Shown piece after piece: positions 14,368 to 57,727 of a stretch of 64,000 nucleotides of DNA (positions within the stretch are counted from its first letter, which is position 1; each line of letters opens with the position of its first letter). The stretch spans positions 352,001 to 416,000 of the forward strand of contig JBEKIW010000002.1 in the NCBI GenBank assembly GCA_050011565.1. The letters run 5' to 3'. The stretch is from Dehalococcoidia bacterium. Lineage in GTDB: Bacteria > Chloroflexota > Dehalococcoidia > GIF9 > UBA5629. The notes beneath the pieces were generated by a model that made no database searches, was not told where the DNA came from, and was given only the letters and a program-made list of their open reading frames with translations. The position numbers and the translations under genes are program-made.

Positions 14368-15210
14368 ATGAAAAAAGAAGAAATCATTGCTTTACTCAAT
14401 GAAGACCTCCAGGCTGAGCATGGTGCCATTATTCAATATCTGAGCCATGCGTATGCTATGGGTGAAGGCGAGTTAGCCTGTGAAATCGAAGCCATTTCCA
14501 GGGAGGAGATGCGGCATCTTGATTGGCTGGCTGAGACCATAGTTGAGCTAGGCGGCAAGCCAAGTATGAAAAGAGGCAAGATGCGCATGGAAGGCAAATC
14601 AACCAGTGATTGGATGAAAAACGATGTGCTGCTAGAAGAAGACGCCATAACCATGTATAAAGAGCACATTGAGGCTATCGGTGACCGCAAGATAAAGCGG
14701 TTGCTGAAACGCATACTGTCAGACGAGGAGTCTCATCACGGTGATTTTGCCCACTTTATCGAGAAGGCCAAGAAGGAAGGCACCAGGGACCTGAGGGGTG
14801 ACCGCAAGGATGGGATAGCTCAGATTCTCAATTGGGGCATCGAACATGAATATACGGTTATTCTGCAATATCTACTTCACTCATATCTGGCGACAAATGA
14901 GGAAATGAAGCTGGAAATGGAGGACCAGGCTATAAATGAGATGCAGCATATGGGCTGGCTGGCCGAGAAGATGGTCAGCGGCAAGGGGAATCCCAGGCTG
15001 GAGCATACTGAGATTGATAAATCCACCAAAGTTGGTGATATGCTCCGCGATGACATCAAAATAGAAAAAGAGGTGGCTGCCGAGTATAACCGAGCTGCCA
15101 AAGAAGTCAAAGATGTCGGCTTGAAGAAGTTGCTTACTCGGATAAGAGACCATGAAATCTATCACGTAGAAGTATTCGGCGACCTGCTAGAGAAAGTAGA
15201 GAAATCTTAA
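14368..15210 (+). CDS. Tandem two-domain bacterioferritin-like protein
   Basis: Two repeats of EH.aI.QY..H / EM(R/Q)H..WLAE / E...Y / (D/H)E..H. Confidence 0.85.
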   Translation: MKKEEIIALLNEDLQAEHGAIIQYLSHAYAMGEGELACEIEAISREEMRHLDWLAETIVELGGKPSMKRGKMRMEGKSTSDWMKNDVLLEEDAITMYKEHIEAIGDRKIKRLLKRILSDEESHHGDFAHFIEKAKKEGTRDLRGDRKDGIAQILNWGIEHEYTVILQYLLHSYLATNEEMKLEMEDQAINEMQHMGWLAEKMVSGKGNPRLEHTEIDKSTKVGDMLRDDIKIEKEVAAEYNRAAKEVKDVGLKKLLTRIRDHEIYHVEVFGDLLEKVEKS

Positions 15211-15260
15211 AGCCAATGAATATTGCGGGTTACCTGGTTTTTAATTTTGGGAGGTAGACG

Positions 15261-15785
15261 ATGTCATTAAAGGGAAAGCGTATTGCCATACTGGCAGAAC
15301 AAGATTTTGAAGATGTTGAACTTACTGAGCCTTTAAAGGCAATGAAGGAAGCAGGTGCTCAGATATTTATCGTCGGCAGTGGCTCTCAGACAAGCTATCA
15401 GGGGAAGAGAGGCAAAGCGACAATCAAGGTCGATATCGATGCCGATAAGGTTAGAGCCGAGGACTTTGATGCCATCATTATCCCGGGTGGCTATGCACCG
15501 GATAAGATGCGGCTGCATCAGCCTATGATTGACCTGGTAAAAAAGGCGCACGATTTAGGCAAGGTGATTGCTGCCGTTTGTCACGGGCCACAACTTCTTA
15601 TCTCAGCTGGTATTGTGAGCGGGCGACGTCTAACTTCCTGGCCTTCAGTGGCCATAGACCTCAAGAACGCGGGTGCAATCTGGGTTGATGAGCCCTTAGT
15701 TAGGGATGGGAATATTATTACCTCTCGCCGACCATCCGATTTGCCGGTATTTAATAGCGCTATAATTCAGGCGCTGGGTGGATAA
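15261..15785 (+). CDS. PfpI/DJ-1 family (YhbO-like) protein
   Basis: FEDVE, IPGG, AVCHGP, TSR. Confidence 0.92.
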   Translation: MSLKGKRIAILAEQDFEDVELTEPLKAMKEAGAQIFIVGSGSQTSYQGKRGKATIKVDIDADKVRAEDFDAIIIPGGYAPDKMRLHQPMIDLVKKAHDLGKVIAAVCHGPQLLISAGIVSGRRLTSWPSVAIDLKNAGAIWVDEPLVRDGNIITSRRPSDLPVFNSAIIQALGG

Positions 15786-15924
15786 ATTGTAAGCGGGAAA
15801 ACTGCGCATATCTGCGAAAGGGATGCATATTGTAATGTTTCTCACCGTGGGATTTTTCAGTAATATTTTGTCTGGGCGTGCTTAAACCGGATGTGATTCT
15901 ATCGAGTTTGCAGGGAGGCTAGAA

Positions 15925-47780: not shown

Positions 47781-49055
47781 TTAAGCTAAAGCTTTTACTG
47801 CCAGCTCTGAGACGCTACTGGCTTCGACATTCAAGCCGTAATGCTCGCTTAGATCTCCGATTTGCTGACGGCAGTTATCGCAGGAAGTGATAACGAGGCT
47901 GGCACCGGTGCGTTTAACCTGCTCAGCCTTAAGCTTCCCCGCCTGCATGCGGATATCTAACCATTCCGGCTCGGCCACCAGTCCGCTGCCGGCGCCACAA
48001 CAATAGCTCTCCAGCCGGTTTGGCGTCATCTCTCGAAAATCCTTAACCGCGGCTCGGATTACACGTCGGGGTTCGTCGAAAATACCGCCTTTACGGCCCA
48101 AATTACAGGAGTCGTGATATGTGGTCGGCTGTCCATTCTTGGAGGAATCCAAGTGTAGACGCCCTTCTCTAACGTATTCATCGAGTACTTCTAGGATGCT
48201 GCGGACCCGAAACGGAAGCTGTCCAAACCATTTGGGAGCCTCCCAGCGCATAGTGGTGTAACCATGGCCGCACTCGGTGACGATGATCTCCTCAGCTTTA
48301 AGTTTTTTGGCCTCATTGATAACACGCCCGGTGATGCGCTTGGACTTGATGCCATCGGCCAGAAAAACGGCGTAGTTGGATGACTCGAACATGCCCAGGG
48401 TCCATGATTCCTTAGCTGCATTGAACAGTATAGCCTGAGGGACAATGGTATGAGCCCCGGCCAGGGGTACGTAAAGCATGCGAGCGCCCTTCTCTTCCAC
48501 CGGTATCCGGGCTTTGGAGCTGCCCAGGCGGTCCTGGACTTCCTTTTCCAGTTCTTTAACCTGCTCCCGATATATATCGCGGAATAGTTCAGCGTTCTCT
48601 TCTTTGGCAATGGCAGCGTTAGCCAGCTCCACCAGCATTTCCGGGGCATTGCCGGTGGCGGTGGCTATCGCCCTCATTATGCGCATGATTTCGGCTGTCT
48701 CCACGCCAAAGGGGCAGGCGAAAGTGCAACGGTGGCACAGCGTACAACTGGCAAAAGCAATCTCCGCCAGCTTGGACAACATCTCGTCGGTCGTCTCTTT
48801 GACGCCCACCCACCGCGGGAATGCGCGTCCCATGGGGTCGAAAAAGCGACGGTACAATCGCCGCACCATTTCGGCACGGTAATAGGGAGTGTGCTCCGTC
48901 CGGGGATTGGACTGGTAATAGTGACAGCTTTCGGTGCATATGCCGCAGCGGACACATACCTCTAGCGCCGTCAGCACCCTGCGGTCAACCAGATTGCCCA
49001 GCATTTCCCGGGCTATGGTTAGCTTATCTTTTTTTGTTTCTACTGCGCTACTCAT
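47781..49055 (-). CDS. DsrK/TmcB/HdrD-like Fe-S CCG-domain oxidoreductase
   Basis: CVRCGICTESC, CTLCHRCTFAC, TECGHG, YHDSC, YCCGAG, TSCDNC. Confidence 0.88.
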   Translation of the reverse strand: MSSAVETKKDKLTIAREMLGNLVDRRVLTALEVCVRCGICTESCHYYQSNPRTEHTPYYRAEMVRRLYRRFFDPMGRAFPRWVGVKETTDEMLSKLAEIAFASCTLCHRCTFACPFGVETAEIMRIMRAIATATGNAPEMLVELANAAIAKEENAELFRDIYREQVKELEKEVQDRLGSSKARIPVEEKGARMLYVPLAGAHTIVPQAILFNAAKESWTLGMFESSNYAVFLADGIKSKRITGRVINEAKKLKAEEIIVTECGHGYTTMRWEAPKWFGQLPFRVRSILEVLDEYVREGRLHLDSSKNGQPTTYHDSCNLGRKGGIFDEPRRVIRAAVKDFREMTPNRLESYCCGAGSGLVAEPEWLDIRMQAGKLKAEQVKRTGASLVITSCDNCRQQIGDLSEHYGLNVEASSVSELAVKALA

Positions 49056-49680
49056 GTGTCCACTCCAGTACGCCGCGGCGCCCGAAGAACAAACCGACAA
49101 AGACGCGTTCGTAAAAGAAATAAATAAAGTGTTTAATCTTGCCGAATGGCGCGTAAGCCAGCGTTATGCCGGAGATAGCCCAGAATAGGGGTAAAAAGTC
49201 CGGTTTGATAGCGGATGCGGCGCCTGCTGCCAGGAATAGTGTCACCAGCGCCAGAGAGAAATAATCATCCGGGGTGCTTAGCAGCCGCATGGTTGGGTCG
49301 CCCAATCTTATGCCGAAACCTGCCACACCCAATACAGCGCCGACGCCGAAAAGAGCCGCTAAAGAGATGCGTAGCGGCAATATCATCTGCGTCAGCCATG
49401 GGCTGGCAATAAGAAACGCTGCGGCCACGAATATGCCAACATGAATGATTATGCCGCGTATATAAGCTACCCAATGCCGTCGAGCGCTCTCCTTGGCCCA
49501 CGGAGCCATGCCCAGAGTGAAAGCATAAAGGACGCCTTGTGCTGGAGAACGTTTGACTGGCGCTTGTTCAGACTGGTAGGGCCGGCGCTGAGCAGCGACA
49601 AGAACGTATAATACGCCAATAATAAAGATGACGGCACCAACCAGTGCTATTCCGGCGGTCACCATCTGCAACATACTCAT
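49048..49680 (-). CDS. NarI/DsrM/HdrE-like membrane cytochrome b subunit
   Basis: About 5 TM helices, IIIHVG, R.LSTPDDY, PFGKIKH; overlaps the DsrK-like gene. Confidence 0.82.
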   Translation of the reverse strand: MSMLQMVTAGIALVGAVIFIIGVLYVLVAAQRRPYQSEQAPVKRSPAQGVLYAFTLGMAPWAKESARRHWVAYIRGIIIHVGIFVAAAFLIASPWLTQMILPLRISLAALFGVGAVLGVAGFGIRLGDPTMRLLSTPDDYFSLALVTLFLAAGAASAIKPDFLPLFWAISGITLAYAPFGKIKHFIYFFYERVFVGLFFGRRGVLEWTHE

Positions 49681-49919
49681 TTCACTTTCTTGATATGGAA
49701 CCTGATTAGCTTGCCATCTCTTTCGATGGAGATAAGCTCGTTGCCGGTGCTCTTGGTCCAGGCAGGTATATCTGCCAGTACACCAGGGTCGGTGGCCGTG
49801 GCTTCTAGTACTTTGCCCACCTCCATGGTTTTAATTGCCTGGCTCACCTTAACTATCGGGATAGGGCAAAGTAGACCCTCAAGATTTAGTTTAACATCTG
49901 CATTTGTTTGTCCTGGCAT
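49677..49919 (-). CDS. TusA/SirA sulfur carrier
   Basis: LEGLLCPIP, ATDPG..DIPAW. Confidence 0.92.
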   Translation of the reverse strand: MPGQTNADVKLNLEGLLCPIPIVKVSQAIKTMEVGKVLEATATDPGVLADIPAWTKSTGNELISIERDGKLIRFHIKKVK

Positions 49920-49935
49920 TATTTTCTCCTCATGC

Positions 49936-50412
49936 CTATACAAATAATGTCATCTTGGAGTGGAAAGCTTTCTCCAGCATGGTAGCCACTCCGCAAGACT
50001 CTTCGGCCTCGTCAATCAGGTGTTCCGCCTTTATCTCCATGACCTGCATGCTCATCTCGCAGGGCAGGAGCTTAACTCCCAGGTCGATGGCGGTCTGCCG
50101 GAGTTCCTCCAGCGGTGTTATTTTATGTGACTTCATCATTTGTTTGAACATCCACCGGCCGATGCCCCAGAAATTGAAACGCGACGGGCCGATAGTATTG
50201 ATACCGCCCCGGTTGAGGAGGCCCATCATGCGGCCGAAGAAGCCCTGACCTGTTAGATTTCCTTTCTGTATGGCTTTTATACCCCAGAAGGTGAAAAACA
50301 TATTGGTTTCTTTGCCGGCTGCGGCAGCTCCGATGGCGATATTGAAGGCTGCCATGACCTTGTCCATGTCACCGCTAAATACGATTATGGTTACACCATC
50401 TTCTTTTGCCAT
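49936..50412 (-). CDS. DsrE2/DsrE-like sulfurtransferase
   Basis: FSGDMDK, MFFTFWG, PCEMSM, CGVAT, TLFV. Confidence 0.92.
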   Translation of the reverse strand: MAKEDGVTIIVFSGDMDKVMAAFNIAIGAAAAGKETNMFFTFWGIKAIQKGNLTGQGFFGRMMGLLNRGGINTIGPSRFNFWGIGRWMFKQMMKSHKITPLEELRQTAIDLGVKLLPCEMSMQVMEIKAEHLIDEAEESCGVATMLEKAFHSKMTLFV

Positions 50413-50621
50413 TTCTGTCTCCTTCACAATTATTAATACACGTTAGATGCGGCACCCTGTACCATGGGGTGGGTGCCGTGCGCCCCCTTAACCAAACTGA
50501 CATGAATTTACCCTGCTTACACCTCCTTCATAGCGTAAACGCGCTGACCTGATATTTATCAAGGTAATTGATGACCTTTTGTTATTTCCAACTTGCGTGC
50601 GAGGCTTCCAGCCTCATCTGT

Positions 50622-50810
50622 CTAGCTTCAGCCGCCGCCGAAGGCGAACTGAGTAAAGAACCTTAACTTATCGGTAGGGCTGTCTAATTTTTCAACTTTG
50701 CCGCCACCGCAGCGGGGGCACTTCACGTTCTTATCGTCTTTCACATTATCCAGATTGGGTTTCTTAAATGTGACGCGACATTCATTACATCCGTATTCCT
50801 GGACTTGCAT
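50622..50810 (-). CDS. FmdB-like zinc-ribbon protein, probably ending GGG-Sec-Ser (TGA at 50628-50630)
   Basis: EYGCNEC..CPRCG..FAFGGG-TGA-AGC-TAG followed by hairpin GAGGCT-GGA-AGCCTC. The gene is solid; the read-through is inferred. Confidence 0.8.
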
Positions 50811-50834
50811 TGTATATCTCCTTTAACTCTGAAA

Positions 50835-51167
50835 TTAAGCTACCAGCCTCTCGGCTAGCTGTTTGTTCTTCTCCATCCGGTCGAGCAGTATCTCATGCAC
50901 CATGTCACAGGCATCGCCGATTTTGGGGTCGCTGAGGCTGTAGTAGACACTGGTCCCTTCTCGCCGGAACTGCACCACCCCTTTGTCCCTGAGAATCGCC
51001 AGATTACGGGAGACAACCGCCTGAGGAAACTCGAGCACCCTTGCCAGCTCGCCCACAGTCGTCTCACCCTGTCGCAGCTCATCGATGATGATAAGCCGCT
51101 TGGCGTCAGCGAAGGTCTTGCATAGTTCCGCCTTTAGTGCGTAAAGTTCAAGATTGTGTCTGGCCAA
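50835..51167 (-). CDS. ArsR/SmtB-family regulator
   Basis: KTFAD.KRL.II, VGEL, VSRNLAILR, REG..VYYSL; TTG start after AGGAAGG. Confidence 0.92.
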   Translation of the reverse strand: MARHNLELYALKAELCKTFADAKRLIIIDELRQGETTVGELARVLEFPQAVVSRNLAILRDKGVVQFRREGTSVYYSLSDPKIGDACDMVHEILLDRMEKNKQLAERLVA

Positions 51168-51193
51168 TGGGCACCTTCCTCATGGTTAATACA

Positions 51194-51239
51194 AATATAT
51201 ATATAGACGTATATTATCATATTGTGTGGGCATTGTCAA
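51194..51239 (-). promoter_or_regulatory. Promoter and candidate operator of the arsR operon
   Basis: TTGACA-N17-TAATAT overlapping the imperfect palindrome AATATACGTCTATATATATATT (51194-51215). Confidence 0.6.
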
Positions 51240-51259
51240 ACCACCTATCCCCGGTGGGG

Positions 51260-51399
51260 AAATCCCAAATCCTAAGCACCAAATCCTAAATAATATCAAA
51301 ATACTAATTCTCCAAATTCAGGATAGTTTATCTTTGTGCCGTTCGAATTTTGAGATTTGGATTTGTTTGATGCTTGGAATTTATTATTTATAATTTGGG
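51260..51399. repeat. Heptamer-built inverted-repeat element (CAAATCC-type left arm, GATTTGG-type right arm)
   Basis: AAATCCCAAATCCTAAGCACCAAATCCTAAA..GATTTGGATTTGTTTGATGCTTGGAATTT. Confidence 0.7.
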
Positions 51400-51460
51400 C
51401 TGCCGGGGGGATATGGTGGGCACACGAATGGTGGTATAATAGGCATCTTGGGGGAAATAG

Positions 51461-53005
51461 ATGGCCAGGTACATAATCGCCCATGATGTAGGCACCAGCG
51501 GCAATAAAGCGGTTCTGGTGGATACTAAGGGGCGCGTCCACGGTAAATGTATTGAGCCTTACAAAACGTATTTTCCGAAGCCAGGATGGGCGGAGCAGGA
51601 ACCGTCAGACTGGTGGAAGGCGGTAACGCGGACGACCAGGCTTCTCCTCGACCGGACAAATATATCTCCTAAAGACATTCTGTGCGTTACTTTCGGTACG
51701 CAGATGCTCGGCGTCATCCCCATTGACTCCAAAGGTGTGCCGCTGAGGCGTGCCATTATCTGGCTTGACAACCGCGCCGGTGAACAGGCGGAGCGGCTGA
51801 TGAGAAAATTCCTCGGACCTCGTGTCTTCGCCTTAATTGCCGGCACTGCCTTATGCGGCAAAGACGGCATGCCCAAGCTACTCTGGCTGAAAGGGGAAGA
51901 GCCTGATATTTACCACAAGATGTGTTGTTTTCTGGATACCTCGGGTTATCTTTTCTATCGCAGCACCGGCAACATGGCCATGGAGTGGACCGGCGCTTCA
52001 GTCTTCGGGCTCGACCTGAAAAAGAAAACATGGATGACCAGTATTTTCAGCTATGTCGGACTTGATACCGAGAAGCTGCCCCCGTTAGTACGATCGATCG
52101 ATAAGGTCGGTGAACTTACCAGAGAAGCTGCCAGGGAATACGGACTTTTGCCCGGCACACCGGTTATGGCTGGCGCCGGCGATGCTCCCTGCGCCGTAGT
52201 TGGCTCCGGCGCCGTCGGCGAAGGCGAAGGTCATGTTTATCTGGGAACCTCCGGCTGGGTGGGCGTGGTCACCAGGCGAATACTGCAGGGTAAATGCGGC
52301 GCCGCCACCATTCATTCGGCAGACCCCGACAAGACGTTTCTATTTGCCGAGACTGAAGCAGCCGGCGGCTGCATCCAGTGGATCGCCGACCAGTTTTACA
52401 AAGCGGAAAAAAAGGACCCGAATATACCCAATGTTTATGCTCTGATGGACGATGAGGTGGCTAAAATTCCACCGGGCTCCAATTATCTTCTTTTCACCCC
52501 CTGGATTTATGGAGAAAGAGCTCCCATTAACGATTGTTATGTCCGTGCCTCATTTCTCAACTTGAGCGCCGAGCATACCCGCGAGGATATGCTGCGTGCC
52601 GTATATGAAGGTGTGGCTTATAACATCAGGTGGATTGTGGAAATCGTAGAGAAAGAGTTCAAGTTGCCACTGCCGCAACTCAGGGTTATAGGTGGAGGCG
52701 CCAAGGGCAAACCCTGGATGCAGATAATGGCTGATGTTACCGGCAGAAAAATTGAGACCGTCTGCGACCCTCAGGAAGCTGGCGCCGTAGGTGCCGCACT
52801 GATAGCGGCGGTTGGCCTGGGAATATACCCGGACTTCGAGTCGCTGAAAAAGGTAATCAAAGTGGACAGGGTATTTGAGCCACAGCCCCGGAATTCGGAT
52901 ATTTATAATACGCTGTATGGTTCGTATCATGAAGTCTACAGTAGCTTACGTAATTTCTATAGAAGGCTGAATAAGGAGCGATTCGACAAGGCGGTGTGTG
53001 AGTAG
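51461..53005 (+). CDS. FGGY carbohydrate kinase (xylulokinase-like)
   Basis: HDVGTSGNKA, WAEQ.P..WW, IIWLDNR, GAGD, GTSGW, GER, EGVA, GGGA. Confidence 0.92.
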   Translation: MARYIIAHDVGTSGNKAVLVDTKGRVHGKCIEPYKTYFPKPGWAEQEPSDWWKAVTRTTRLLLDRTNISPKDILCVTFGTQMLGVIPIDSKGVPLRRAIIWLDNRAGEQAERLMRKFLGPRVFALIAGTALCGKDGMPKLLWLKGEEPDIYHKMCCFLDTSGYLFYRSTGNMAMEWTGASVFGLDLKKKTWMTSIFSYVGLDTEKLPPLVRSIDKVGELTREAAREYGLLPGTPVMAGAGDAPCAVVGSGAVGEGEGHVYLGTSGWVGVVTRRILQGKCGAATIHSADPDKTFLFAETEAAGGCIQWIADQFYKAEKKDPNIPNVYALMDDEVAKIPPGSNYLLFTPWIYGERAPINDCYVRASFLNLSAEHTREDMLRAVYEGVAYNIRWIVEIVEKEFKLPLPQLRVIGGGAKGKPWMQIMADVTGRKIETVCDPQEAGAVGAALIAAVGLGIYPDFESLKKVIKVDRVFEPQPRNSDIYNTLYGSYHEVYSSLRNFYRRLNKERFDKAVCE

Positions 53006-53022
53006 ATATCCACTAATTCTTA

Positions 53023-53074
53023 TAGGGGCGAGGCTTTAGCCTCGCCCAGTGCGACCTTAAAAGGTCGCACCTAC
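53023..53074. repeat. REP-like double hairpin
   Basis: GGGCGAGGC-TTTA-GCCTCGCCC then GTGCGACCT-TAAA-AGGTCGCAC-CTAC; degenerate copy at 62269-62309. Confidence 0.8.
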
Positions 53075-53144
53075 ATGAGACGATGATGAGTGATGCTAAA
53101 CAAGGGAAAGATTCGATAAGACAGTGTGTGAAGGAGGTGTTTAA

Positions 53145-54455
53145 ATGAATGGCGATGATATTTTGAGCCTGCCCATTGCCCTGCCCGACGGCGTGGATTA
53201 TGACGACTACGTTATCGGCACCTATCTGGTCTCTTATCCAGCCTCGCTGCCTCTCCCTATAATTGCGCCTTTCCTGGCTATCGAGCAGAGCACGGGGACG
53301 TGGGTGGCTGTGCCCGGCGAGACCGAGGAAGTCCGACGTCAGCATATCGCCAAGGTGGTGGGTGTTTATGAAATGCCCGACTACGAGTCCACCGTGCCGG
53401 CGAATCTACAGACCAGGCAGTGGTTCGTCCAGGTGGCTTATCCCGAGGTAAACATCGGTGAGCAGATACCCATGCTGCTGACCACAGTGGTGGGCAACAT
53501 CTCCATGGGCGGCGAAATAAAGCTGGTGGACATGCGTTTTCCGAAGAAATTCGCTGCCGGTTTCAAGGGCCCCAAATTCGGCGTCGACGGCATACGTAAG
53601 CTTCTGGGAATTCCGAAGCGACCACTGCTAAATAACATGATAAAGCCCTGCACCGGCTATACCTGCGAAGTCGGGGCTGAACTGTTTCGCAAAGCGGCCG
53701 CCGGCGGCTGCGACATCGTTAAGGACGACGAGCTTATTGCCGACGCCTCGTTCAACTCGGCGCTGGAGCGCGTCAAGCTTTATATGCAGGTTGAGAAGCA
53801 GGTCTTCGAGGAAACCGGTGAACATACGCTGTACACAGTGAATGTAACGGATAAAATACCAAAGGTCTTCGAGACTGCCAAACGCGCCGTGGAATTGGGC
53901 TGCAACGCGCTGATGATAAACTACCTGGCTGTCGGCTTTCCGGTGTTGCAGGCGCTGGCTGAAGACACCAGCCTGAATGTGCCCATACTGGCACATATGG
54001 ACGTGGCCGGCGCTCTGTACATGTCGCCTTATCACGGCATGAGCTCTCATCTGGTGCTGGGCAAATTGCCGCGGCTAGCAGGCGCCGACGTAGTTGTTAT
54101 CCCCGCCCCCTACGGCAAGGCGCCGGTAATTGACTATAAGTTCAAAAATGTTGCCCGAAACCTGTTATTCCCGCTATATAACCTGAAGCCCACGTTCCCC
54201 ATGGCATCGGGCGGCATCACCCCGTCCATGGTGCCGCAGGTGATGATGGCGCTGGGCAATGACATAGTCATAGGTTCCGGAGGCGGCATTCATGCGCATC
54301 CCCAGGGTGCCATCGCCGGAGGCAAAGCCTTCCGGCAGGCGATAGATGCTACCATGCAGGGCATTCCGCTGGCCGACTATGCCAAGGAGCATGAGGAGCT
54401 GGCGATTTCACTAAAGGAGTGGGTCGACCCGTTCAGCAGAGGAATCAGAATTTGA
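53145..54455 (+). CDS. RuBisCO-like protein (form IV)
   Basis: EQSTGTW, VGN, GPKFG, IKP, KDDE, SGG, GGGIHAHP.G; lacks several carboxylase residues. Confidence 0.93.
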   Translation: MNGDDILSLPIALPDGVDYDDYVIGTYLVSYPASLPLPIIAPFLAIEQSTGTWVAVPGETEEVRRQHIAKVVGVYEMPDYESTVPANLQTRQWFVQVAYPEVNIGEQIPMLLTTVVGNISMGGEIKLVDMRFPKKFAAGFKGPKFGVDGIRKLLGIPKRPLLNNMIKPCTGYTCEVGAELFRKAAAGGCDIVKDDELIADASFNSALERVKLYMQVEKQVFEETGEHTLYTVNVTDKIPKVFETAKRAVELGCNALMINYLAVGFPVLQALAEDTSLNVPILAHMDVAGALYMSPYHGMSSHLVLGKLPRLAGADVVVIPAPYGKAPVIDYKFKNVARNLLFPLYNLKPTFPMASGGITPSMVPQVMMALGNDIVIGSGGGIHAHPQGAIAGGKAFRQAIDATMQGIPLADYAKEHEELAISLKEWVDPFSRGIRI

Positions 54456-54468
54456 AAGGAGCAGTAAG

Positions 54469-55686
54469 ATGTCTAAAGTTACGGTTTTAGGCGGCAGTGG
54501 TGCGGTTGGCAGCATAGCCTCGGAGACGCTGGCTTCGAGCGGTGTATTCTCCGAAGTAACGGTGGCTGATATAAATATTGCAGCCGCCAGAAAGGTAGCC
54601 GGCAAGCTAAAGGGGAGTAAGGTCTCTGCTGTCGAATTCGATGCCGATGGCCCCCAGAGCCTGAGAAAGGTAATCGGCGGCTCATCAGTGGTACTGAACT
54701 GCGTGGGTCCTTTCTACAAGTACGGGCCCACCATACTAAAAACGGTGATAGAAGCCAGAATAAACTATGTTGATATCTGTGATGATTTCGATGCTACCGA
54801 GAAGCTGCTGGCAATGGATGACAAGGCCAAGAAAGCCGGCGTTTCAGCGCTCATCGGCATGGGCAGCTCTCCCGGCGTAGCTAATATTCTGGTCAGGTTC
54901 TGCGCTGATTCCCTGCTCGACCAGGTGGAGGCGGTGGATATATACCACGCCCACGGCGGCGAAAAAATTGAAGGACCGGCGGTAGTGAAACACCGGATTC
55001 ATTCCATGCAGATAGGTATTCCGATGTTCCTCGACGGCAAATTTACTACCGTGAATCTATTTGACGACAGCGGCAAGGCATTGGAAGAGGAGGCCGAGTT
55101 TAAAGATGTCGGCACCTACAACGTCTACGGCTATCCGCATCCCGAGACAATAACCCTGCCTAAATATTTGAAGGGTTTGAAGAGGGTAACCAACCTGGGG
55201 CTGGTGCTGCCTCCGGCTTACGCCGAGCTGATAAAGGGTATGGTCAGGCTGGGCGTTACCGATGAGAAACCCATCGAAGTACAGGGCCATAAGATTGTGC
55301 CGCTGGAATTTGCCGTAGCCTATATACTTTCCCAGCGGGAGAGATTGCTGAAAGAGGCCGGGATTAACCAGCCTATGGGCTGCTTGAAGATCGTGGTTAA
55401 AGGGGTCAAGGACGGCGGCAAGAACACTTATATCTTCTCCATGTCTTCCCGGGGGCAGGGTATGGGCGAAGGCACGGGCATACCGGCCGCTATTGGCGCC
55501 ATAATTATGGGTACGGGAAAGATTACGCTGAAAGGCGTTTTGCCGCCCGAGGCCTGCGTCAACCCCATGGACCTGCTGGAGCTGGCTAAGACCAAAGTAA
55601 AGACGGTTGGCGGCAAGGGCTTCCCCATTTCCATCGAGCATATCGATAAGGACGGCAAGTCGCAGAAGTTGAACCTGTTTAGCTAG
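54469..55686 (+). CDS. Saccharopine dehydrogenase-family oxidoreductase
   Basis: LGGSGAVG, NCVGPF, YVDICD, GSSPG, HPE, GVLPPE. Confidence 0.9.
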   Translation: MSKVTVLGGSGAVGSIASETLASSGVFSEVTVADINIAAARKVAGKLKGSKVSAVEFDADGPQSLRKVIGGSSVVLNCVGPFYKYGPTILKTVIEARINYVDICDDFDATEKLLAMDDKAKKAGVSALIGMGSSPGVANILVRFCADSLLDQVEAVDIYHAHGGEKIEGPAVVKHRIHSMQIGIPMFLDGKFTTVNLFDDSGKALEEEAEFKDVGTYNVYGYPHPETITLPKYLKGLKRVTNLGLVLPPAYAELIKGMVRLGVTDEKPIEVQGHKIVPLEFAVAYILSQRERLLKEAGINQPMGCLKIVVKGVKDGGKNTYIFSMSSRGQGMGEGTGIPAAIGAIIMGTGKITLKGVLPPEACVNPMDLLELAKTKVKTVGGKGFPISIEHIDKDGKSQKLNLFS

Positions 55687-55688
55687 TG

Positions 55689-55823
55689 AAATCCCCCTTA
55701 ACCCCCCTTTTTCTAAGGGGGAGATGAATTTTTACCTTTTTCTAAGGGGGAGATAAGCTTTTACCTTTTCTAAAGGACGAAATAAACCTCTCCCTTTCGT
55801 AAAGGGAGATTGAGAGGGATTTT
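55689..55823. repeat. Palindromic element with tandem CCTTTTCTAAGGGGG hairpins upstream of the DUF559 gene
   Basis: AAATCCCCC..AGGGATTT termini; partial copies at 60637-60661 and 62458-62494. Confidence 0.8.
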
Positions 55824-55829
55824 ATTAAA

Positions 55830-56189
55830 ATGCTAACCTACAACAATAGACTGGCAAGCTATAGCCGTGAACTGAGAAAGAATATGACGGATGCCGAACG
55901 GTATCTCTGGTCTAAGGTAAGGATGCGACAAGTAGGAGGCTGCCAATTCTATAGGCAGAGAATTATAGGTGATTACATAGTGGACTTTTTTTGCCCCAGA
56001 GCAAAACTGGTAATTGAAGTCGATGGTGGCCAGCATAGTTCTGATGAGATTACCGCTGCAGATGAAGAGAGGGATGAATATTTGAAAAGCAAAGGTTTGA
56101 AAGTGATAAGATTTAATAATATTGAAGTTCTCAGGAATATTGAAGGGGTGGTGGAAAAAATACTTGAGAATATGAGGTATATCAGGTAG
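55830..56189 (+). CDS. DUF559 (Vsr-like) endonuclease-domain protein
   Basis: LRKNMTDAE..LW, RQ..IGDYIVDF, IEVDGGQH, RD.YL, V.RF.N. Confidence 0.92.
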   Translation: MLTYNNRLASYSRELRKNMTDAERYLWSKVRMRQVGGCQFYRQRIIGDYIVDFFCPRAKLVIEVDGGQHSSDEITAADEERDEYLKSKGLKVIRFNNIEVLRNIEGVVEKILENMRYIR

Positions 56190-56240
56190 CTCCCCATAAT
56201 CCTCCTCACCTTTGACTTTTGGCCTTTAAATTTTTACTTT

Positions 56241-57110
56241 ATGTCCATGACCATCCGTGAAACCATCCGCCGTCGGTTCAGCGTCCGGCATTACCAACCA
56301 AAACCGGTGCCGGAAGACATCTTAAAGGCTGTTGAAAAATCCGGTGAAACATCCCTGGCTCTGGCCGACGGCATTAAAGCCCGCTTCCACTTAATCAACG
56401 AGGGCAGGCTGGTGGCGGAGCAGATGACCTTTCAAACCGGCAGACGGTGGCTCTTCGGCTCAGCGCCGCACTTCATCATAGCCACCTCGGAGGAAAAGCC
56501 CCTGTTTATGTTGAACATGGGCTTCCGCATGGAGCAGGTGATGCTTTTTGCCACCACGCAGGGCCTGGGCACTTGCTGGATTGGCGGCCTGTTCACCGAG
56601 AAGCGAATCGGGACCTTTTTAGGATTGGATAAAGGCGAGCGCGTCATCGCCCTGACGCCGCTCGGCTATCCCGATGTCTCGTCCTACGGGCGGGCTATAC
56701 ACAGCATCGTTCACCTGGGCGGGCCGGATTCCAGGCGGAGGCAGCCTCTGGAGCAGATAGTCTTCGGCTCCCGGTGGGGTACGCCGCTTGAGACTAAGGG
56801 CAACGAGCTTCTGGAAGTTTTGGAATGCACCCGCCTGGCGCCGTCGTGGGCAAATACGCAGCCCTGGCGCTTTTTAGTGAATGGCAGGGAAATAATAGCT
56901 GTTGCCGACGCCAGCGGCAGAAACCTTTCCGTCCGCGATGGAAAGCATTATTATCGCCTCGACCTCGGCATCGCCATGGCGCATTTCTACCTGTCGGCTA
57001 AAGAGCTGGGCTGGAAAGGAAGCTGGCAGGTTACCGGCTTCGACCCGGCGCAGGTGGCTAAACAGCACGCCATTCCCGCCGGCTTTGAGGTGCTGGGGAT
57101 ATACAGGTGA
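56241..57110 (+). CDS. Two-domain nitroreductase-family protein
   Basis: RFSVRHY, GLGTCWIG, LAPSWANTQPW, DLGIAMAHF. Confidence 0.9.
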   Translation: MSMTIRETIRRRFSVRHYQPKPVPEDILKAVEKSGETSLALADGIKARFHLINEGRLVAEQMTFQTGRRWLFGSAPHFIIATSEEKPLFMLNMGFRMEQVMLFATTQGLGTCWIGGLFTEKRIGTFLGLDKGERVIALTPLGYPDVSSYGRAIHSIVHLGGPDSRRRQPLEQIVFGSRWGTPLETKGNELLEVLECTRLAPSWANTQPWRFLVNGREIIAVADASGRNLSVRDGKHYYRLDLGIAMAHFYLSAKELGWKGSWQVTGFDPAQVAKQHAIPAGFEVLGIYR

Positions 57111-57181
57111 TAGGCTATTCATTTTTGCAATAGCTTGCCCGTTAGGGTTATCATTGGTTACATCAAGAAGAAGAGTAAGAA

Positions 57182-57727
57182 ATGAAAAAGAAATCAATCA
57201 CCGTGGCGGTAAGCGGAGCCTTCGACCCCATACACGTAGGTCATATTGCCTACCTGCGTGAAGCGGCCAAACTGGGTGACAGGCTGGTGGTGATATTGAA
57301 CAACGACATTTTTCTGCTCAGGAAAAAAGGGTTTGTGTTCCGGCCGTTCGAGGACAGAAAAGAGATACTGGAGAACATTAAGGGTGTAGATGAGGTTATC
57401 GCGTCTATAGATGACGACCAGACAGTCTGTAAAACCCTGGAACTGCTCAAGCCCGATATATTCGCCAAAGGAGGCTATCGGACGGGCCCCGAAAATATTC
57501 CCGAAGCCGAGACCTGCCGCGCCATCGGCTGCAAGGTAGTCACCATGGTCGGCGGCGGCAAACTTCGCGCCGATGAGGAGTTGGACTCAAAGCTTAAGGG
57601 ATTTGGCAGGCACGAGGAAGGCACGGTTGAAATCGACTGCCCCTACTGTGACGACCATCCCATATTAAAAGAGAGATGTCTCCACTGCAAAGGCAAGGGC
57701 AAGGTGGATGTGGGGAAGGCGGACTAA
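57182..57727 (+). CDS. Cytidylyltransferase-family protein (TagD/RibL-like) with a C-terminal Zn finger
   Basis: SGAFDPIHVGH, R.EILE.I.GVD, PDIFAKGG; CPYC..CLHCKGKG. Confidence 0.85.
   Translation: MKKKSITVAVSGAFDPIHVGHIAYLREAAKLGDRLVVILNNDIFLLRKKGFVFRPFEDRKEILENIKGVDEVIASIDDDQTVCKTLELLKPDIFAKGGYRTGPENIPEAETCRAIGCKVVTMVGGGKLRADEELDSKLKGFGRHEEGTVEIDCPYCDDHPILKERCLHCKGKGKVDVGKAD

Follow-up and report, generated by a model that had tools for sequence, protein, structure and literature searches.

Described relatives of the locus

Among characterized RuBisCO-like proteins (RLPs), the 2,3-diketo-5-methylthiopentyl-1-phosphate enolases (MtnW/YkrW; G. kaustophilus 2oek and B. subtilis 2zvi) have mtnB/X/K/A as gene neighbors. 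The DeepYkr RLP of R. rubrum and R. palustris, a 5-methylthioribulose-1-P 1,3-isomerase, acts on a ketose monophosphate with a non-phosphate tail and is paired with a cupin methylsulfurylase (PMC5893883). In the apiose-pathway systems (the OiaX decarboxylase and a transcarboxylase/hydrolase), an oxidoreductase yields an oxo-sugar, a DUF1537 kinase phosphorylates it, and the RLP acts on the phosphate ester. A precedent from biotin synthesis comes from PMC12704756, in which BioU, an enzyme of the saccharopine-dehydrogenase fold, replaces the class III aminotransferase BioA, the two doing the same ketone-to-amine job in different organisms.

The locus investigated here lies in a window of 64,000 nucleotides (the whole stretch of DNA analyzed) from a Dehalococcoidia bacterium. 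At 51461..55686, an FGGY kinase, a form IV RLP, and a saccharopine-dehydrogenase-like enzyme are encoded co-directionally on the forward strand. The arrangement follows the same logic as the apiose pathways but partners the RLP with an FGGY kinase and an amine enzyme instead of a DUF1537 kinase or the mtn genes and, unlike the DeepYkr system, has no adjoining cupin methylsulfurylase.

Organization of the locus

The three open reading frames sit exactly where the earlier note on this DNA had placed the trio, and their Pfam domains agree with its assignments.

50835..51167, minus strand: ArsR/SmtB-type regulator, divergent (Pfam HTH_5; NCBIfam HTH_metalloreg, 78 bits)
51367..51394, plus strand: promoter-like site 5' of the kinase gene (TTGATG-16-TATAAT, 10/12 matches, consensus match only)
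51461..53005, plus strand: FGGY-family kinase P0002, 514 aa, xylulokinase-like (Pfam FGGY_N 7e-52, FGGY_C 6e-32)
53002..53131, plus strand: kinase/RLP spacer, 130 nt, with two perfect 10-bp hairpins and a flanking 27-nt direct repeat
53145..54455, plus strand: form IV RLP P0001, 436 aa (Pfam RuBisCO_large 6e-45, RuBisCO_large_N 5e-9)
54469..55686, plus strand: saccharopine-dehydrogenase/reductase-fold NAD(P) oxidoreductase P0003, 405 aa (Sacchrp_dh_NADP, PF03435, 3e-18; Sacchrp_dh_C, PF16653, 1e-11)
56241..57110, plus strand: nitroreductase-family flavoprotein (Pfam TM1586_NiRdase, Nitroreductase)

The kinase-RLP gap is 130 nt here versus 12-30 nt in most relatives, and the spacer looks like a small insertion. 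It carries hairpins I1 (53026-53047) and I2 (49-70), its direct repeat D1 (52975-53001 and 53105-53131, 81% identical) repeats the 3' end of the kinase gene, and it matched no Rfam family. Promoter-like sites number 13 in the region versus a mean of 6.5 in shuffles. An ArsR/SmtB-type gene holds the same position only in L113, L117, and L129, and a TetR gene holds it in three loci of other lineages (L067, L094, and L109). The ArsR/SmtB-type protein is a possible regulator of the trio, in an association that is local only, and might just as well act for the DsrE2/TmcBC-like genes, which share its strand. A nitroreductase-family gene also lies 3' of the dehydrogenase gene in L097, L113, and L117, and the Actinomycetota locus L067 has Fer4-nitroreductase and FMN reductase genes upstream; the flavoprotein is a possible, weakly associated accessory gene.

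Conservation of the trio

Of 20 related loci, 19 keep the order kinase, RLP, dehydrogenase; the remaining one stops at a contig edge, and its dehydrogenase is found at the start of another contig. Such a recurrence of three genes in one order is far beyond chance. A kinase orthologue or FGGY paralogue adjoins the RLP in all 20. Twenty of 41 related genomes encode the RLP and the identical 20 a dehydrogenase orthologue, whereas the kinase occurs in those 20 and in G023, there near a contig end. Two genomes of the same genus (G006 and G007) lack all three genes. The earlier note had allowed that the trio might prove unconserved; instead, it is ordered where present, all-or-none across the genomes, and gained and lost as a block, although the related genomes are not independent, so that the co-occurrence counts imply more events than there were. 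A paralogous module, in which dehydrogenase and kinase are paired but the RLP is missing, occurs in G020, G027, and G036.

An RLP outside the characterized clades

RLP P0001 scores below the cut-offs of both MtnW models (382.5 versus 409 and 349 versus 513.6), the form III model (258 versus 497), and the OiaX model (194 versus 700). In trees, it falls outside the MtnW/DeepYkrW-type clade (SH 100) and belongs to a cross-domain clade of 92 rows that includes archaea and bacteria. Presumed DeepYkr representatives, a label inferred from their KKC...S...GGT signature, group with MtnW and apart from P0001, and OiaX occupies a different part of the tree. Profile scores and trees thus bear out the claim that the RLP is no RuBP-type carboxylase, and the form IV tree and model scores place it in none of the characterized clades, where the earlier note had considered that it might fall.

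To map active-site residues, P0001 was aligned to carboxylase-type representatives, with residue numbers that we take to be those of spinach RuBisCO. The alignment retains E60 (E47 in P0001), N123 (N118), K175 (K167), K201 (K193), D203 (D195), E204 (E196), H294 (H284), K334 (K325), S379 (S355), G381 (G357), and G403/G404 (G379/G380), in agreement with the residues, KDDE motif, and SGG/GGG loops previously described as kept. The K177C and R295M replacements also hold (C169 and M285), but the reported H327P was slightly misaligned: the H327 column contains V318, a valine invariant in the clade, and prolines P320 and P322 fall in the G329 and V331 columns. The signature does not vary among all 92 clade rows; E60, N123, and K334 are kept, and the old second phosphate site (R295, H298, and H327) has become Met/Ala/Val beside a new invariant Asp. 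The far end of the substrate is therefore predicted not to be a phosphate and may be neutral or positive. E60, N123, and K334, kept here although lost in the MtnW type, are the residues that RuBisCO uses for the carboxyl group, so P0001 may perform carboxylate chemistry, either decarboxylation or carboxylation. The OiaX-like representative P0218 likewise keeps N123 and K334, and a DUF1537-RLP fusion protein (P0321) is also found. Judged by sequence, the clade is uncharacterized and kinase-linked, with an active site unlike every characterized RLP type sampled.

MtnW and P0001 have a common fold (≈40% identity to 2oek) and share K175, K201, D203, E204, H294, the first phosphate site, and a P-x-P-Y-G motif before position 334; both have lost the second phosphate site. 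They differ in that MtnW representatives have Gly/Ser at E60/K334 and Pro-Ala, rather than Met-Asp, after H294. The N123 column holds Asn throughout the P0001 clade (N118 stands opposite K98 of 2oek) and Lys in seven of seven MtnW/DeepYkrW-type representatives, a residue that we take to be the catalytic base in MtnW.

These likenesses bear on a variant of MTA or 5'-deoxyadenosine salvage in which the RLP would be an MtnW-type enolase or an R. rubrum-type methylthioribulose-1-P isomerase. The MtnW enzymes are its nearest characterized relatives by sequence, JGI labels hundreds of homologues 'DK-MTP-1-P enolase', and the tail pocket is hydrophobic (M285, V318, and the prolines), as in MtnW. The observation that no methionine-salvage genes are nearby is true within the window; a whole-genome search located MtnA (C2:328245) and MtnP (C2:322866) outside it, 77-82 kb from the RLP, so the genome makes the MtnP and MtnA products. 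That search found no MtnK, however, and both class II aldolases lie far from the RLP; the neighborhood contains no MtnB/X/D or cupin. MtnA exceeds its cut-off in 33 of 41 related genomes, including ones without the RLP, and its product is therefore independent of this RLP. The FGGY kinase and the amine enzyme have no role in the known pathway versions (PMC5893883). Together with the MtnW scores, the tree position, and the Asn at the N123 column, these points make a salvage variant very improbable.

The FGGY kinase

Kinase P0002 carries DVGTSG and GAGDAP motifs, and among PDB entries it matches E. coli xylulokinase best (2itm, 2e-54). It scores 337 bits against NCBIfam XylB, under the cut-off of 380.25; XylB likewise gives the best score for all nine RLP-linked kinases scanned, yet under the cut-off (277-355 versus 380). 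Against the autoinducer-2 kinase model, P0002 gives a match of 196 bits. By analogy, that match could place the trio in detoxification or use of a reactive diketone, the AI-2 precursor DPD, with an LsrK-like kinase, an RLP that tautomerizes the phospho-diketone as LsrG does, and a dehydrogenase or aminotransferase that removes the remaining carbonyl. MtnW-type RLPs are established to act on a 2,3-diketone phosphate, and flavin reductases (nitroreductase, OYE, and PNPOx-like) recur near the loci. With XylB far above LsrK in nine of nine kinases and no LsrF/G-like gene seen, we regard this role as extremely doubtful.

A dehydrogenase exchanged for aminotransferases

Dehydrogenase P0003 has a GGSGAVG motif at residues 8-14, with G8, G11, and G14 invariant in 23 sequences. 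The top folds for its AF2 model (pLDDT 93.5) are the carboxyspermidine dehydrogenases (B. fragilis 8deb and H. pylori 8h4z; TM 0.76-0.81, ≈21% identical), with which it has a two-domain NADP fold in common. L-lysine dehydrogenase, saccharopine reductase, BioU, and homospermidine synthase follow, so that the close structural relatives are all imine-chemistry enzymes. P0003 nevertheless scores only 51 bits against the NCBIfam carboxynorspermidine synthase model (cut-off 800) and has no decarboxylase partner nearby. BioU matches at TM ≈0.5 only, the carboxyspermidine dehydrogenases being much closer (TM 0.8), and no biotin link of the trio operon was found.

In a wider sample of 80 loci from genome contigs, a kinase lies within 5 kb of the RLP in 38. 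Of these, 22 include the dehydrogenase and 13 a class III aminotransferase (nine GABA-AT-like; four HemL-like, in L065, L107, L109, and L120), and none has both. Neither kinase nor amine enzyme is in reach in 41 loci, mostly from Asgard archaea and some on short contigs. At least six dehydrogenase/aminotransferase swaps are needed on the RLP tree, which has 29 S rows and 13 A rows; one of them is between sister rows L052 and L051 (SH-aLRT 100). Genome-wide, dehydrogenase matches do not exceed 35% identity in five aminotransferase-type genomes (orthologues, 50-97%), and aminotransferase matches do not exceed 40% in five dehydrogenase-type genomes (orthologues, 55-71%) or 37% in our genome. By gene content, class III aminotransferases replace the dehydrogenase in other lineages, and the neighbors point to amine chemistry.

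From its predicted structure and its replacements, P0003 likely performs C-N chemistry. This is not certain, because three paralogues in the same genome (36-41% identical) lie in an acyl-CoA/hydantoinase cluster, and one saccharopine-dehydrogenase-like family member is an enoyl reductase. The earlier proposal of C-N chemistry is thereby strengthened, but not its "C-N linked sugar conjugate." Such a conjugate would be a secondary amine, whereas the substrates of aminotransferases are primary amines; an amino-polyol or amino-sugar with a primary amine would be the simpler reading.

If P0003 were instead a polyol dehydrogenase forming a ketose, the kinase and the RLP, as an epimerase or isomerase, would feed the pentose-phosphate pool in plain polyol or sugar catabolism, and the aminotransferases of other lineages would serve a different substrate or step. 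A dehydrogenase with an FGGY pentulokinase is a classic polyol pair, the RLP-less module has just this composition, and the P0003 paralogues lie among non-amine enzymes and give weak 3Beta_HSD co-hits. All closely matched solved structures, however, act on C=N bonds, and an alcohol substrate hardly explains the either-or relationship with two kinds of class III aminotransferase; we consider this role decidedly unlikely.

Two observations from the wider loci sit uneasily with the catabolic pathway proposed below. An HAD phosphatase gene stands beside the aminotransferase-kinase-RLP genes in L065 and L072, which would equally fit biosynthesis ending in an amino-polyol. An MFS gene is near only four loci, and most, including our operon, lack a transporter, which is odd for catabolism of an outside compound.

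A proposed pathway

Our preferred, still tentative reading comprises an amine-to-carbonyl step, phosphorylation, and enolization of a ketose monophosphate by the RLP. Within it, the trio would be a single metabolic module acting on a small, sugar-like molecule that bears an amino group or has one removed or added. The dehydrogenase, with NAD(P), would convert the amine-bearing carbon of a free amino-polyol or amino-sugar to a carbonyl, as L-lysine dehydrogenase does, and aminotransferases would perform the same conversion elsewhere. The xylulokinase-like kinase would then phosphorylate the terminal hydroxyl of the resulting ketose. This ketose monophosphate would occupy the first phosphate site of the RLP, which is intact (S379, G381, G403/404, and T65/W66); the enzyme would enolize it on a Mg2+/carbamate center (K175, K201, D203, E204, and H294) and then isomerize or cleave it to a central metabolite. 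The carbonyl shift along the chain catalyzed by DeepYkr may be a good model for this reaction. The sequence dehydrogenase, kinase, RLP follows the earlier note and fits both the gene order in most lineages, the C-N enzyme gene preceding the kinase gene in Actinomycetota, Bathyarchaeia, Thorarchaeota, Anaerolineae, and three other archaeal loci, and the RLP-less dehydrogenase-kinase module; the order of steps itself we infer.

The module could also run in the biosynthetic direction, which we consider unlikely. A free ketose would then be phosphorylated, the RLP would isomerize it, and the dehydrogenase would reductively aminate its keto group, a step performed by transaminases elsewhere; the resulting amino-polyol phosphate might go into a solute, a cofactor, or a part of the envelope. 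The HAD phosphatases, a Zn-ADH gene between kinase and RLP in L087, and the transporter-free operon agree with this direction, and the invariant Asp might hold an ammonium group, provided that the amine reaches the RLP. The nearest solved relatives, the carboxyspermidine dehydrogenases, presumably run in the reductive, amine-forming direction. BioU and BioA both turn a ketone into an amine (PMC12704756). A pathway that opens with a kinase acting on a free sugar nevertheless resembles salvage or catabolism, since biosynthetic routes usually begin with intermediates that are already phosphorylated, and the C-N gene is usually first in the operon. The module is also lacking in half of the closely related genomes, among them two of the same genus, and therefore does not make an essential building block.

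The trio recurs from Asgard archaea to Chloroflexota. This breadth, together with its gain and loss as a block, suggests that the module marks an undescribed sugar-phosphate pathway, one that appears in databases under the mistaken label of methionine salvage.

Organization and conservation of the kinase–RLP–dehydrogenase locus

ORF calls and Pfam searches bear out the earlier note's placement of three co-directional genes at 51461..55686, in a genome of 2.0 Mb that is assembled in 8 contigs and is 99.2% complete:

51461–53005, + strand: FGGY kinase (P0002), 514 aa, with both FGGY domains (Pfam)
53145–54455, + strand: form IV RuBisCO-like protein (RLP), 436 aa, with both RuBisCO large-chain domains (Pfam)
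54469–55686, + strand: saccharopine-dehydrogenase-fold enzyme (P0003), 405 aa, with both family domains (Pfam)

A promoter-like site lies 70 nt 5′ of the kinase gene, and an Rfam search across 49500–57500 gave 0 matches at E ≤ 1, with no riboswitch or other RNA element. By Pfam and NCBIfam, the flanking genes on both sides are apparently unrelated to the trio: upstream, a divergent ArsR regulator is followed by DsrE2 and TmcB/TmcC-like genes, and downstream lie genes for a DUF559 protein, a nitroreductase-family protein, a cytidylyltransferase, an NYN-domain protein, and TypA. The products of the genes beside the ArsR regulator (47781–50427, minus strand) resemble a DsrE2 sulfur carrier, a TmcC/HmcE membrane protein, and a DsrK/TmcB/HmcF iron-sulfur protein, all scoring under the equivalog cut-offs. 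The DUF559 gene (55830–56189; Vsr-like endonuclease fold), located between the dehydrogenase and nitroreductase genes, resembles a local insertion because the nitroreductase gene is directly 3′ of the dehydrogenase gene in two other loci (L097 and L113). The gap between the kinase and RLP genes also resembles a small insertion, as it measures 140 nt here versus 12 to 30 nt in most relatives. The 130-nt insert between the kinase stop and the RLP start (in the interval 52975–53131) carries two perfect 10-bp hairpins. Flanking it are two copies of a 27-nt direct repeat, 81% identical, in which the 3′ end of the kinase gene is duplicated; the insert may be a miniature mobile element or of the REP-like type.

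The RLP is found in 20 of 41 related genomes, and in all 20 of these loci the FGGY kinase gene is located 5′ of it. The dehydrogenase gene follows 3′ in 19 of the 20; the twentieth locus runs to a contig end, and its dehydrogenase gene is at the start of another contig. By whole-genome searches of the 41 genomes, those with a dehydrogenase orthologue are precisely the 20 that have the RLP; the kinase is in these 20 plus one more (G023), where it is near a contig end in a genome of ≈280 contigs. All three genes are absent from two genomes of the same genus, G006 (83% complete) and G007 (94% complete). This shared presence and absence suggests that the trio is gained and lost as a unit, although the co-occurrence is to be read as a pattern and not a statistic because related genomes are not independent. 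Among 401 genomes sampled from the phylum, only those of this order have RLPs more than 70% identical to the query, the next best being 48% identical. Within one family of the order, the RLP (69–73%) and dehydrogenase (67–70%) resemble ours closely and the kinase is just ≈40% identical; judged by these identities, the original kinase has evidently been exchanged there for another FGGY member. Two assemblies deserve separate mention. The trio has apparently decayed in G012 (C17:32417-35435), where the RLP match is in two pieces (residues 1–389 and 387–436) and the kinase match is interrupted by four TGA stops and one TAA stop. G343 has two equal-scoring RLP matches in opposite orientation (C21:5802-7100 and 14503-15801), which represent an inverted duplication or an assembly artefact.

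Family assignment of the RLP

The RLP exceeds the Pfam cut-offs for the RuBisCO large-chain N-terminal domain (PF02788, 5e-9) and catalytic TIM-barrel domain (PF00016, 6e-45). Its best NCBIfam models are two equivalogs for MtnW, the DK-MTP-1-P enolase of methionine salvage, and it misses the cut-offs of both (PRK09549, 382.5 versus 409; TIGR03332, 349.1 versus 513.6). It also scores 258 against a cut-off of 497 for the form III RuBisCO model and 193.7 against 700 for the equivalog of OiaX, the apiose-pathway decarboxylase. The closest solved structures are those of MtnW enzymes, which are ≈40% identical.

To place the protein among its relatives, we searched 1.84 billion cluster representatives, scanned 60 full-length matches against NCBIfam, and built a tree of 94 rows. 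Only two of the 60 scanned representatives (P0153 and P0157) pass both MtnW cut-offs, and those passing or nearing these cut-offs fall in a single 16-row clade (SH 100), in which 16/16 members do not have the Lys at 334 and the N123 position is Lys in 15/16. The query is located outside this clade, among sequences patterned N-K-C-K-D-E-H...K, and the MtnW-type clade (SH 100) excludes it in a 131-row tree and a 60-row quick IQ-TREE tree as well. All three trees were built with FastTree or quick IQ-TREE and carry SH-type support without bootstraps, and the labels of unnamed representatives come from model scores and signatures instead of organism names. In a comparison with the DeepYkr-type MTRu-1-P isomerase, which is paired with a cupin methylsulfurylase, the RLP's neighbors include no cupin, and the query is also outside the clade that contains the presumed DeepYkrW-type representatives, a tentative label. 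The earlier note had argued that the RLP is not a carboxylase; the form III score, the loss of the second phosphate site described below, and the concurrence of the three trees support that it is probably neither a RuBP-type carboxylase nor a member of the MtnW-type clade. Relatives are numerous, with 2723 proteins at E ≤ 1e-30 to the RLP among 7999 candidates scored; the 120 matches listed are 83 to 96% identical to the query. Many homologs are labeled as methionine-salvage "DK-MTP-1-P enolase" in databases (JGI names).

A remodeled active site

We mapped active-site residues by aligning the RLP to carboxylase-type and MtnW-type representatives, with spinach numbering. The residues that the earlier note had read by eye are all present (E60, N123, K175, K201, D203, E204, H294, K334, S379, G381, and G403/404), as are T65 and W66. 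Its proposed substitutions K177 to Cys and R295 to Met stand, whereas H327 corresponds to Val318 rather than to Pro; the two prolines of the RLP align with G329 and V331, and H298 is replaced by Ala.

The catalytic positions are conserved throughout a clade of 92 rows, for 56 of which a kinase was seen, the remaining 36 including 4 rows of unscored context. The Mg2+/carbamate centre (K193, D195, and E196 of the RLP; K201, D203, and E204 in spinach numbering), K167 (K175), and H284 (H294) are invariant in 92/92 rows save one X at the K201 column. T65 is invariant too, and the W66 column is Trp in 87 rows with Phe in the other 5. The clade retains the first phosphate site, with G381 and G403 invariant and S379 and G404 kept as Ser and Gly, each in 86/92 rows. 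At the second phosphate site and K177, the RLP has M285, A288, V318, and C169, where 6/6 carboxylase-type representatives have R, H, H, and K.

Table. Active-site positions (spinach numbering) in the RLP clade and in MtnW-type representatives
Position; RLP clade (92 rows); MtnW-type representatives (7)
E60; Glu; Gly
N123; Asn (92/92); Lys (7/7, MtnW/DeepYkrW-type)
K177; Cys; Val/Ile, or Cys in DeepYkrW-like rows
R295-A296; Met-Asp; Pro-Ala (one Pro-Ser)
H327; Val (one Ile); Leu
K334; Lys; Ser (one Asn)

Asn118 of the RLP aligns opposite K98 of the Geobacillus kaustophilus MtnW (2oek), presumably its catalytic base. We take E60, N123, and K334 to be the residues that hold the carboxyl group in RuBisCO, and these three with K175, K201, D203, E204, and H294 to be its enolisation and carboxyl-holding set. 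On this alignment, the uncharacterised clade is set apart from MtnW by its residue signature. It retains the enolisation machinery, the first phosphate site, and the three carboxyl-holding residues, whereas its second phosphate site has become a hydrophobic pocket that includes a single new acidic residue. That combination points to a monophosphate substrate with a neutral or cationic far end and is compatible with isomerase, enolase, or (de)carboxylase chemistry. A bolder reading is that the clade is a "monophosphate RuBisCO" that adds or removes CO2 on a ketose monophosphate with an amino or neutral tail. In its favor, the enolisation and carboxyl residues are kept without exception from Asgard archaea to Chloroflexota and only the second phosphate site (Met-Asp, Ala, and Val) is remade; we consider it a long shot.

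Methionine salvage

A role in methionine salvage can be weighed against this signature and against the genomic context. As the earlier note had observed, no methionine-salvage gene is close to the RLP: there is none among the 18 neighboring ORFs (Pfam and NCBIfam). MtnA and MtnP are encoded 77 to 82 kb away and two class II aldolases elsewhere in the genome, in which MtnK was not found. MtnA scores over its cut-off in 33 of the 41 related genomes, including those that do not have the RLP. We therefore rejected a dependency of the RLP on MtnA, and the RLP is not a required consumer of the MtnA product. Together, the missing Lys, the foreign neighborhood, and the independence from MtnA make the database name "DK-MTP-1-P enolase" an improbable one for this clade. 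A metagenome paper generally assigns type IV RuBisCO to methionine salvage (PMC7495880), a default that is unlikely to apply here.

Kinase-linked RLPs in archaea and bacteria

Searching species genomes with a profile built from 11 diverse clade members gave 570 confirmed relatives, and we examined the neighborhoods of the best 80 loci of the 570 by tblastn, on which the context counts rest. The archaea among these 80 are Thor-, Heimdall-, Hel-, Hermod-, and Odinarchaeota, Bathyarchaeia, Hadarchaeales, Baldrarchaeota, Geothermarchaeota, and Thermoplasmata; the bacteria are Dehalococcoidia, Anaerolineae, Actinomycetota, Bacillota, a spirochaete, and Desulfomonilia.

Table. Gene context of the RLP in the best 80 loci
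FGGY kinase within 5 kb of the RLP; 38/80
Kinase and dehydrogenase (50–88% identical to ours); 22 of those 38
Kinase and GABA-AT-like class III aminotransferase; 9 of those 38
Kinase and neither amine enzyme by tblastn; 7 of those 38
Neither kinase nor amine enzyme in reach; 41/80
Aminotransferase alone (L080); 1/80

Four of the seven loci with neither amine enzyme have a HemL-like class III aminotransferase, adjacent in three (L065, L107, and L109) and 4.5 kb away in L120. The 41 loci without a kinase or amine enzyme are mostly Asgard and have quite different neighbors; some are on short contigs.

The kinase P0002 carries PF00370 and PF02782 and, in translation, DVGTSG and GAGDAP, which we take to be the phosphate-binding motifs of FGGY kinases. 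Its score for the XylB equivalog is 337 versus a cut-off of 380.25. XylB is the top model for 9/9 RLP-linked kinases scanned, none of which exceeds the cut-off, the other eight scoring 277 to 355. An apparent kinase–RLP gene fusion of 956 aa in L072 was dismissed because translation reveals a stop codon between the two genes, and no such fusion was found in the clade among longer proteins, an absence that is weak evidence in a search of this kind. The sole fused RLP seen (P0321, an 891-aa metagenome protein) is 33% identical to the query, belongs to another clade, and carries two DUF1537 acid-sugar kinase domains.

Other neighborhoods were also observed. No kinase gene neighbors the RLP gene in many loci of the Promethearchaeota type (L082, L101, L103, and other Asgard loci). 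The RLP gene there comes after a gene, present once or twice, for a 371-aa protein that is restricted to Asgard archaea and has no Pfam family, and Arf/Roc GTPase, LRR, and GH31 genes are close by. The 371-aa protein was considered as a hidden kinase and set aside, its ESM Atlas matches being Asgard hypotheticals only. Sister RLPs of the Clostridia type (L098, L110, L115, and L057) have no FGGY kinase beside them; their neighbors are a SorC regulator and PEP-hydrolase-like proteins (PF09370; one or two of them), which points to another unassigned RLP context.

Probably interchangeable amine enzymes

P0003 comprises PF03435 and PF16653, and its GxGxxG Rossmann glycines (G8, G11, and G14) are invariant. 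It scores 51.4 against a cut-off of 800 for the carboxy(nor)spermidine dehydrogenase equivalog, and its ESM Atlas matches are clusters named "saccharopine dehydrogenase family protein" only. The AlphaFold model (pLDDT 93.5) best matches carboxyspermidine dehydrogenases (TM ≈0.8), followed by L-lysine dehydrogenase, saccharopine reductase/dehydrogenase, BioU, and homospermidine synthase, all of which act on C=N intermediates.

The dehydrogenase and aminotransferase occur together in 0 of the 80 loci. The RLP tree interleaves the two states, requiring at least 6 changes over 29 dehydrogenase and 13 aminotransferase rows, or 5 without the distant L120 gene. Bathyarchaeia (dehydrogenase) are sister to Geothermarchaeota (aminotransferase), Actinomycetota (dehydrogenase) are sister to a spirochaete/Desulfomonilia pair (aminotransferase), and Anaerolineae (aminotransferase) are nested among Dehalococcoidia (dehydrogenase). 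Genome-wide searches for the missing partner in ten genomes gave paralogue-level matches only (≤35% for the dehydrogenase and ≤40% for the aminotransferase), and no aminotransferase orthologue was found in our genome, where the best match is only 37% identical. There is a precedent for such an exchange in BioU, which replaces the class III aminotransferase BioA, as described in PMC12704756. Given the interleaved swaps, the absent partners, the C=N structural relatives, and this precedent, we read the dehydrogenase and aminotransferases as alternative enzymes for amine/carbonyl interconversion on the same metabolite.

C–N (imine) redox activity is accordingly a prediction for P0003, drawn from its modeled structural relatives and its replacement by aminotransferases. 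Three further saccharopine-dehydrogenase-like paralogues (36–41% identical) are encoded at C1:512000-532000 of the same genome (L137 and L138), in an unassigned catabolic cluster that also has TetR, an AMP-dependent ligase, hydantoinase A/B, a LIV-type ABC transporter, an SDR, an acyl-CoA dehydrogenase, and a family III CoA-transferase. One member of the saccharopine dehydrogenase family is an enoyl reductase. Considering that enzyme and the paralogues in an acyl-CoA cluster, C–N chemistry is our best guess for P0003 rather than a certainty.

Possible order of steps

The gene for the amine enzyme is 5′ of the kinase gene in most lineages. Three related genomes additionally contain a paralogous pair, a dehydrogenase gene followed by an FGGY kinase gene (L141, 7470–10374; L143, 563–3378; and G027, C17:294690-297578), with no RLP nearby and unrelated flanks; the dehydrogenase is 50 to 52% and the kinase 36 to 37% identical to that of the trio. 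A pair that exists without an RLP is suggestive of the dehydrogenase and kinase acting in sequence, with the RLP handling the product of its own particular kinase. In two loci with the aminotransferase version an HAD phosphatase gene is adjacent, and one locus includes a Zn-ADH gene; these neighbors would also fit a biosynthetic pathway leading to an amino-polyol.

Implications

RLPs are a small set of enzymes, and each of the few solved functions has revealed a new pathway. In the open-access literature and bioRxiv, we found no paper that links an RLP to an FGGY kinase, xylulokinase, or saccharopine dehydrogenase. The trio is unmentioned in the accessible portions of PMC7325909 and PMC6302742, and form IV neighborhoods are not treated in PMC13454268. 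The conserved gene content described here indicates that a three-enzyme module around an uncharacterised RLP clade is real and crosses domains. The module follows the known oxidoreductase–kinase–RLP logic; its kinase family, active-site variant, and interchangeable amine step are new.

The clade is large, spanning Asgard archaea, Bathyarchaeia, Thermoplasmata, Chloroflexota, Actinomycetota, and Bacillota, and the module lends itself to testing, since it comprises three soluble enzymes in a defined order, an amine step, and a residue signature by which the clade can be told from MtnW. Once the substrate is solved, many reconstructions of metabolism in subsurface microbes would be corrected, and there would also be a further data point on how the RuBisCO active site was reshaped. 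Should the improbable CO2-handling reading prove true, the RLP, kinase, and interchangeable amine enzyme would constitute a new and widespread carbon-nitrogen route in subsurface anaerobes.
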